Source of the DNA: Dipteris shenzhenensis
Taxonomy: Eukaryota
NCBI GenBank assembly: GCA_047967505.1
Contig: CM106538.1
Length of the DNA stretch: 64,000 nt
Direction: 5' to 3' (one strand)
A program made the position numbers and the translations under genes. Shown here one piece after another: positions 44,062 through 44,499 of the stretch; position 1 is the stretch's first letter; each line of letters begins with the position of its first letter. A model generated the notes under the pieces. The model ran no database searches. It saw nothing but the letters and a program-made list of their open reading frames with translations, and was not told where the DNA came from.

Positions 44062-44499
44062 ATGACCCACCAGACACAGGAAGAGGAGTCTGAAGAGGTG
44101 GTTGCAAGGGAGGAAAGGCGAAAGAAGTTCAAAGCAGACAAGCGGCCATGGAGCCATGTCCAAAGGCCAATGCAGGGTCCCCCAAAGATTAAGAGGCGCA
44201 AAAAATCAGGCATGAAGGCACTTCAAGAGATCCGCAAGTTCCAAACCACTGTGGACAATCTCATTCCTCGTGCACCCTTCCAACATGTTATACATGAAAT
44301 AGCACAGCATTACAAGAGTGATGTGTGTTTCACTTCAGGCGCTATGGGAGCAATTCAGGAGGCAATGGAGTAGATGACAGTAGGTCTTTTTAAAGATGCA
44401 AACTTATGTGCTATCCATGCCAAAAGAGTAACAGTGATGGACAAGGATAGTGCACTCGTCAAGCGCATCCACCACTCCGATCCCTCCCTTAGGCCCTAG
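44062..44499 (+). pseudogene. divergent histone H3-like gene (complete histone fold, non-canonical tail, one in-frame stop)
   Basis: [93 protein letters not shown] aligns without gaps to the H3 core; TAG at 44371-44373, terminal TAG at 44497-44499, AATAAA at 44566. Confidence 0.9.

Follow-up and report, generated by a model that had tools for sequence, protein, structure and literature searches.

An H3-like frame among transposon relics

The window analyzed here is a stretch of 64,000 nucleotides of contig CM106538.1 from Dipteris shenzhenensis (assembly GCA_047967505.1). At 44062–44499, on the plus strand, Pfam and PDB matches mark a reading frame (frame 1) that opens with an ATG at 44062–44064, runs through 103 sense codons to an in-frame TAG at 44371–44373 (+), and continues for 41 further sense codons to a terminal TAG at 44497–44499. 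With the internal TAG read as X, its product (P0001) matches the Pfam Histone family (PF00125) with an E-value of 3.9e-27 (95.4 bits; cut-off 26.4), and phmmer against the PDB matches 176 sequences, the best of which is H3.3 (3av2_A; E = 1.8e-28). Residues 42–146 of P0001 align with H3.3 residues 31–135 without a gap, from alpha-N to alpha-3, so the length of loop 1 is canonical. The match of this frame to H3 is far beyond chance. The first-pass annotation had described a frame of about 145 codons, interrupted by one TAG and gap-free to the H3 core, and both the Pfam match and the collinearity with H3.3 bear this out; the motifs it quoted (ALQEIRKFQ, LIPRAPFQ, EIAQ, QEA, and a longer core stretch) are all found. 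The acidic-then-basic N-terminus (EEESEE...ERRKKFK...KIKRRKKSG) is there as described, and ARTKQTARKS is absent: The window copy is without the canonical N-terminal tail, and the contexts of K4, K9, and K27 are all missing from it.

Homology to the H3-variant family described below reaches further upstream than this frame. Everything homologous to the family, which we annotate as an H3-variant pseudogene, occupies 44006–44499 (+) and comprises a 5′-truncated tail, the tail block, and the histone fold. Its extent is given by tblastn with two relatives (P0002 and P0004 match 44014/44077–44493; E = 2.5e-52 and 8.8e-46) and by contigs from other runs, which start matching at 44006. An upstream extension of the ORF, raised earlier as a question, is seen in part: Homology to the long relatives goes on to ∼44006–44014, but it crosses a further in-frame TAG (44032–44034, +) and ends at 44005/44006. 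This TAG was placed by tblastn, self-BLAST, and the sequence itself within the part that still matches the N-terminal extension of the long relatives. At the C-terminus, the window copy and the ENA relatives stop at the same place (SDPSLRP vs. SDPALRH).

Upstream of the pseudogene lies the relic of an unrelated gene, in two parts. The upstream part (34698–36314, +) was detected by tblastn with the protein P0142 at 36% identity (E = 1.8e-75); it is interrupted by stops and shifts of frame and falls into pieces at 34698–35336 (with stops) and 35428–36315. The downstream part (43505–44004, +) matches at 46% identity over 43505–43984 (E = 1.2e-35), contains two in-frame stops, and lacks the last ∼85 or more residues; DNA matches extend to 44004. 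A protein search with the ORF at 35407–36312 gave one relative, P0142 itself, an ENA protein of 690 aa in a cluster of 13 members. P0142 has no Pfam domain and no PDB match by phmmer or profile search, its AF2 model (pLDDT 35) is unusable, and the language-model atlas gave no usable match for the window ORF 35407–36312. P0142 shows the motif pattern WHL-DLK...C-YC followed by C-LH-E, which is like a DDE/zinc transposase core, and its look-alikes in the atlas include RAG1 RNase-H/ZnC2/ZnH2 clusters (score 0.92, with recognition below the usual bar). On this likeness the relic, a candidate transposase, would belong to a Transib/RAG1-like family.

The relic is cut by a young Ty1/copia LTR retrotransposon (36315–43504, −), whose LTRs (repeat D5) show 1 mismatch in the 259 bp compared and which retains an open polyprotein frame of 1218 aa. 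Its target-site duplication, TGGCA, is found at 36310–36314 and 43505–43509, and contigs of two other runs (X1 and X2) carry the empty site, with a loose end before 43504. The long leader of the element contains, at 41823–41982, a short tandem array of TGACGTGGCA-type units at spacings of 14, 26, and 40; we take these units to resemble TGACG/ACGT-core promoter boxes. An older fragment of the same copia family, 83%–88% identical to 39330–40344 and with many stops, is located at 51009–52000.

The relic (left) and the H3 variant (right) meet at a breakpoint at 44004–44006. We mapped Logan contigs of four runs (X1–X4) on 43400–45000 at ≥82% likeness. The relic contigs X2 record 13 (43735–44004) and X4 record 25 (43768–44004) diverge from the window after 44004, and the 30 letters that follow are identical between the two runs. 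The H3-part contigs X1 record 4 (44006–44107) and X2 record 14 (44006–44099) have foreign letters before 44006, a position at which loose ends occur twice in X1 and also in X2. Translated by hand in the H3 frame, both of these loose ends are open for 10 codons, reading TQPTVSQPH and PQLAVSQPR, and then EKEKRPRIK. Since the other copies continue differently on both sides, the relic and the H3-like sequence are not native neighbors at 44005/6. The junction is private to the window locus, and no native linkage of the H3 variant to a transposase or reverse transcriptase is seen in these contigs or among the ENA contigs described below. As for the missing end of the relic, the 30-letter loose end has no match in the window at three or fewer mismatches, and tblastn of P0142 finds nothing beyond 43984.

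The 3′ flank (44500–44684, +), in contrast to the upstream junction, is common to other copies: One contig (record 8) follows it to 44625, and another (record 16) covers 44596–44684 and runs on. It contains an AATAAA at 44566–44571 and no poly(A) run. A MITE-like palindrome of 161 bp follows at 44682–44842, with 73-nt arms that form an inverted repeat of 92% complementarity; a diverged palindrome follows the same 3′ flank in an X2 copy, and the loose end behind 44684 resembles one of its arms. We found no poly(A) after the AATAAA at 44566, and the homology of the copies runs past the signal to 44625, 44684, and beyond, into the palindrome. Together these two observations argue against an origin of the copies as simple retrocopies. 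An intronless sequence and a 5′ truncation, as a LINE-made retrocopy would also show, are both seen in the window copy, whatever the intron structure of the parent gene. No element termini or target duplications bounding an H3-variant unit were found; by self-BLAST, the window contains one truncated copy.

Decay of the window copy

The internal TAG stands opposite a Gln of the motif AEQMAT that all intact relatives have at this position, and a change from CAG to TAG takes one C>T step. We set the window copy beside canonical H3 and an ENA member close to the family consensus, the ancestral codons being inferred rather than observed. All three sequences are identical at 44 positions. Where the ENA family and canonical H3 disagree, the window copy has the ENA residue at 36 positions and the canonical one at 11. 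The fold also has 12 positions at which the ENA family equals canonical H3 and the window copy alone departs. A single C>T or G>A step accounts for eight of the 12, including four at CpG; the outcome is His (three times) or Cys in place of conserved arginines, and Lys in place of Glu. At 44392 and 44212, every contig covering the site reads G (Glu and Val, respectively), and the window has A (Lys and Met). Such a bias toward C>T and G>A is expected of methylated, silent plant DNA, in which cytosines are deaminated.

Judged by its sequence, the window copy is a front-truncated, stop-containing dead copy of a divergent H3 variant, and inert, because it is truncated at 44005/6, contains two in-frame TAGs, and has lost conserved arginines to C>T/G>A changes of its own. 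In its truncation, its in-frame stops, its C>T/G>A-biased decay, and its nesting among transposons, it is like the dispersed histone pseudogenes of plant repeat DNA, although, unlike these, it points back to a source lineage that appears to be old, constrained, and outside the standard H3 genes.

The frame from the ATG is otherwise complete and has one stop, so the stop may instead be recent or still polymorphic, the window sequence then being a nonsense allele of a copy that works. A stronger version of this idea holds that the locus is a working gene, its TAG being read through, an assembly error, or a rare allele, and that the 145-residue protein would serve as a tail-less, anti-silencing H3. 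A single stop after the ATG would fit this idea too, as would the Met that relatives also have near the position of the window's ATG and the retention of the residues that we take to form the H3–H3′ interface (Cys and His of CAIHAKRV, and Asp of KD). The cut at 44005/6, the additional TAG in the upstream homologous part, the replacement of fold arginines by His or Cys and of Glu by Lys where all close copies keep Glu, and the embedding of the locus in nested transposon debris make a working gene very improbable.

Relatives, tail, and phylogenetic placement

Of 494 candidates scored in the first homology search, 469 have E ≤ 1e-5, and six family-level matches stand well above all ordinary H3s. 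The best relative, P0002 (141 aa), matches with an E-value of 1.7e-44 at 60% identity over 90% of the query. The intact relatives come from another organism, are 132–189 aa long and ∼60% identical to the window product, and share the same tail block. Together with the members of their clusters and P0155, the six matches represent 27 distinct ENA proteins, 10 of which carry the tail. Stop-free copies, which the first-pass annotation had proposed to look for, thus exist as intact ENA ORFs that share both the fold and the tail.

Conservation extends to the tail taken alone. A BLAST of P0002 residues 1–47 against the window gives 27 identities in 45 positions (E = 4e-16), and intact relatives have in common a conserved block of the form ERRKKFK-D-RPW ... 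PPK-KRR-K-G. Searching 1.84 billion representatives with a profile produced 14,525 matches at E ≤ 0.001. We examined 13 of the matches listed, most of them matching from near the profile start, and among these 13 two long proteins, P0161 (335 aa) and P0175 (337 aa), both on Logan contigs of 1.4–1.6 kb, share the tail block. In both the block lies directly before the fold (P0175, 21 of 38 residues identical, E = 7e-6; P0161, E = 0.007). P0161 starts with MARTKQTARPS, and the long ENA form P0005 has KQTARKS ∼90 residues upstream of the fold. Given these sequences far upstream of the fold in the long relatives, the family tail is evidently an H3 tail that has been expanded by a long insert rather than replaced, with a K4/K9 context in the full-length forms. 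The earlier description of a replaced ARTKQTARKS tail therefore applies to the window copy, where that sequence is absent, and not to the long relatives, which keep KQTARKS (P0005) or MARTKQTARPS (P0161). The same division runs through the proposed loss of the K4, K9, and K27 contexts: No K27 context was seen in the long relatives, but K4/K9 contexts exist in the full-length forms.

Structure prediction adds modestly to this picture. The AF2 model of P0002 has a mean pLDDT of 68, with helices at residues 2–23, 46–63, 67–84, and 89–135, and the tail block (residues 2–23) is predicted, with modest confidence, to be helical. A Foldseek search with this model gave TM values of ∼0.25 and no match at E ≤ 0.001; the three-dimensional shape is uninformative. 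Cluster look-ups gave no name for any family member, nor for P0161, P0175, or P0142. A scan of JGI metagenomes with the family profile gave nine loci of ≤55% identity that match in the fold only, and no family member; a scan of viral contigs gave 152 pattern matches, none of which was confirmed. Text searches, which covered the main texts of part of PMC, found no paper on such an H3 family or on a transposon-encoded H3, and a literature search by motif had no match.

We placed the family in a quick maximum-likelihood tree built from the C-terminal 125 residues of 55 hand-picked sequences: the window copy, four ENA members, four long forms, seven named matches, and 39 unnamed ones, plant CENH3 references being absent. 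In this phylogeny, a check that had been suggested earlier, the window copy and the ENA family group as one clade (SH-aLRT 99), which falls outside the canonical H3 cluster and has a stem 1.18 changes per site long. The clade is apart from the two named animal CENP-A sequences (P0077 and P0093), and P0161 and P0175 form long branches of uncertain place. A homology search with a mixed alignment was dominated by canonical H3 proteins in tandem or fused form, and no plant CENH3 with a name came out of it.

These results bear on the simplest account of the locus, namely, that it is an ordinary canonical H3.1 or H3.3 that has decayed and whose tail has drifted to noise. The fold is indeed 50%–55% identical to H3.3 and H3.1. 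However, drift from a canonical gene is contradicted by the 36 positions shared with the ENA family against canonical H3, as compared with 11 the other way, by the homology of the tail between organisms (E = 4e-16), and by the position of the long-stemmed clade outside the canonical cluster; we regard this account as refuted and scarcely credible. The earlier proposal of long divergence under constraint, with no simple decay, holds for the family on the same three grounds (36 common derived positions, the tail homology, and SH-aLRT 99), and the window copy itself, with its truncation, its two TAGs, and its C>T/G>A decay, is not a working gene. The likeness to H3.3/H3.1 consists of the same gap-free fold from alpha-N to alpha-3, ∼50%–55% identical, and of the CAIHAKRVT core, which the window copy retains. 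Unlike H3.3/H3.1, the window copy is without the ARTKQTARKS...K27 tail; in the family, the ERRKKFK-D-RPW/PPK-KRR block replaces the K27–K36 region, alpha-N reads LIPRA-F vs. LIRKLPF, and the proline of MPKD is lost.

The hallmarks of CENH3 are a divergent and usually longer tail, a longer loop 1, loss of the PFQ glutamine, Trp in place of F84, a change at T107, localization at centromeres, and, typically, one or two gene copies. The first-pass annotation had excluded CENH3 on the basis of the canonical loop 1, the retained PFQ glutamine, and the equivalent of F84, and this exclusion turns out to be insecure. The F84 position is Phe in the window, Trp in the ENA consensus, and Cys in one ENA member, P0122. 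The window reads PFQH and the ENA family AFQR, and P0161 and P0175 read FAR, with Ala instead of the glutamine. Loop 1 is not longer than in H3 in the window and ENA forms; P0175 alone has one extra residue.

That the family is the centromeric histone of its lineage, and the window copy one of its pseudogenes, is possible, if doubtful, on these sequence characters. Such an identity would fit the long, insert-expanded, divergent tail with an H3-like start (MARTKQTARPS in P0161, KQTARKS in P0005), the Trp at F84 in the ENA relatives, which the animal CENP-A proteins P0077 and P0093 have likewise, the Ala at H3 T107, the lost MPKD proline, and, in the distant long forms, the Ala for the PFQ glutamine (P0161 and P0175) and the extra loop-1 residue (P0175). 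Unlike CENH3/CENP-A/Cse4, the window and ENA forms have no lengthened loop 1 and keep the glutamine, and the window copy has Phe at F84. Nor does the family join the animal CENP-A sequences in a tree that contains no named plant CENH3, and among the PDB matches H3 chains (50%–55% identity) rank above CENP-A chains (43%–44%). The many copies of the family are also atypical, given that CENH3 is usually single-copy (PMC7738545).

A further comparison is with atypical plant H3s that lack K27. The Arabidopsis H3.15 class has this property together with an otherwise normal short tail and is encoded by few-copy genes. The family is like it in having an H3 fold without a K27 methylation context, which is the basis of the anti-silencing idea, and unlike it in being multicopy and in having a tail expanded by tens to ∼190 residues.

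Copy number and the proposed source gene

Our evidence on copy number comes from the runs of other organisms and from ENA contigs, not from the source genome. In X1, a run with only 1.95 Mb of contigs in all, position 44115 is covered by as many as four distinct contigs; overlapping Logan contigs could partly be alleles rather than paralogs. Summed depth in X1 is 17–22 for the H3 part, 8–10 for the relic, and ∼200–215 for the copia LTR. In the coding part, close copies differ from the window by 3%–10% (9/102, 14/133, 5/149, and 10/127 letters in X1; 9/94 and 10/151 in X2), and in the 3′ flank by ∼4% (6/151 and 4/89); the coding part is thus not better conserved than the flank. A deep signal at 44372–44429 from run X3, guessed to be RNA, was set aside as canonical H3 rather than the variant, its loose ends reading canonical H3.

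The ENA copies likewise appear unconstrained. Among 25 members (P0155 and P0140, which have aberrant ends, are omitted from the count), the 93 fold columns contain 41 distinct substitutions; the 50 columns that match canonical H3 account for 23 of these, in line with chance (binomial p = 0.88). The ENA substitutions are often R>C/H/Q, P0155 is frameshifted, and 15 of the 27 ENA proteins measure only 83–94 aa, owing to an upstream break or a contig end. Positions that are invariant in H3 vary as freely as others among these copies, which looks like neutral recent divergence. Taken with the deep conservation between organisms, this neutral drift among copies suggests a source sequence under constraint from which dead copies arise. 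The sequence at 44006–44499 is probably one inert, 5′-truncated copy of an intronless H3-variant sequence that is present in several to many copies.

The window copy itself is an ordinary pseudogene, and the interest lies in the H3-variant lineage behind it: a lineage with an insertion-expanded tail, a short tail block conserved between proteins of just ∼40%–60% identity, many decaying copies, and no name in the sources queried. Its conserved source gene might encode a replacement for nucleosomal H3; the CAIHAKRV core and the KD/L...RI stretch, which presumably form the H3–H3′ interface, are retained in the family. The N-terminal tail of such a gene would be the H3 tail (KQTAR...) expanded by the long insert, and the conserved tail block may be a docking site for a dedicated partner, a chaperone or a targeting factor. 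The source gene would repeatedly give rise to DNA copies that end up in methylated, repeat-rich DNA and decay there neutrally; one of these, without function, would be the window copy.

As to what the source gene is, we lean slightly toward a host H3 variant of a centromeric type or one otherwise specialized. If it is the centromeric histone of its lineage, it would be a CENH3 whose loop 1 is canonical and which is accompanied by a large cloud of pseudogenes. That the source is instead a gene carried by a mobile element appears unlikely; if it is, the histone would be transposon-encoded, a case of which the text searches found no example.

In its most explicit form, the mobile-element explanation makes the H3 variant and the transposase-like relic two genes of one composite DNA transposon, joined in the window by an internal deletion at 44005 in which the end of the first gene and the start of the second were lost; on this view the chromatin of the element itself would be the histone's target, for instance to counter silencing. 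The two are in the same orientation and ∼20 bp apart, each family is multicopy in the same runs, and each has relatives in ENA. The long-term conservation of the ORF and the tail while copies decay neutrally is the usual pattern of mobile elements, and the homology of the copies past the AATAAA without poly(A) argues for copying at the DNA level. Several observations do not fit. No contig joins the two genes: The ENA contigs with the H3 variant measure 550–2175 bp, and no H3-variant protein among the 27 is recorded on the longer contigs of P0142 type, which reach 6981 bp. X4 contains the relic at a depth of 28–215 and nothing of the H3 part, the terminal repeats and target duplications of such a unit were not found, and the identity of the transposase derives only from a language-model look-alike. 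We consider the composite transposon improbable. We likewise give a low probability to a wider proposal: An intronless H3-variant gene with a conserved tail block of its own would have stayed intact and spread to many copies, in two or more plant-like genomes that are only distantly related, as a rider or part of a mobile element. The transposon-borne histone would then build special, K27-less nucleosomes on the element's DNA and blunt host silencing, and the window copy would be a deleted derivative.

The window as a whole looks like repeat-rich nuclear DNA of a plant, judging from its open copia polyprotein frame and from the LINE fragment, microsatellites, and host-gene segments listed here. 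Rfam and tRNA scans of the window found no match. Five consecutive open frames of 88–256 aa at 45077–47570 (−), for which Pfam gives nothing at E ≤ 0.1, possibly form one repeat-borne gene, and a reverse-transcriptase fragment at 49617–49910 (+; RVT_1, E = 1.4e-7) is probably a LINE relic. Long (TATG)n/(TG)n microsatellites occupy 48776–49500 and 33851–33936, with flanks (33935–33977 and 48807–48849) that form an inverted pair of 84% identity. Two segments are probable exons of host genes: an aldo/keto reductase segment at 2820–3353 (−; E = 1.6e-12) and an X8 (CBM43) domain at 60586–61182 (+; E = 1.3e-22).
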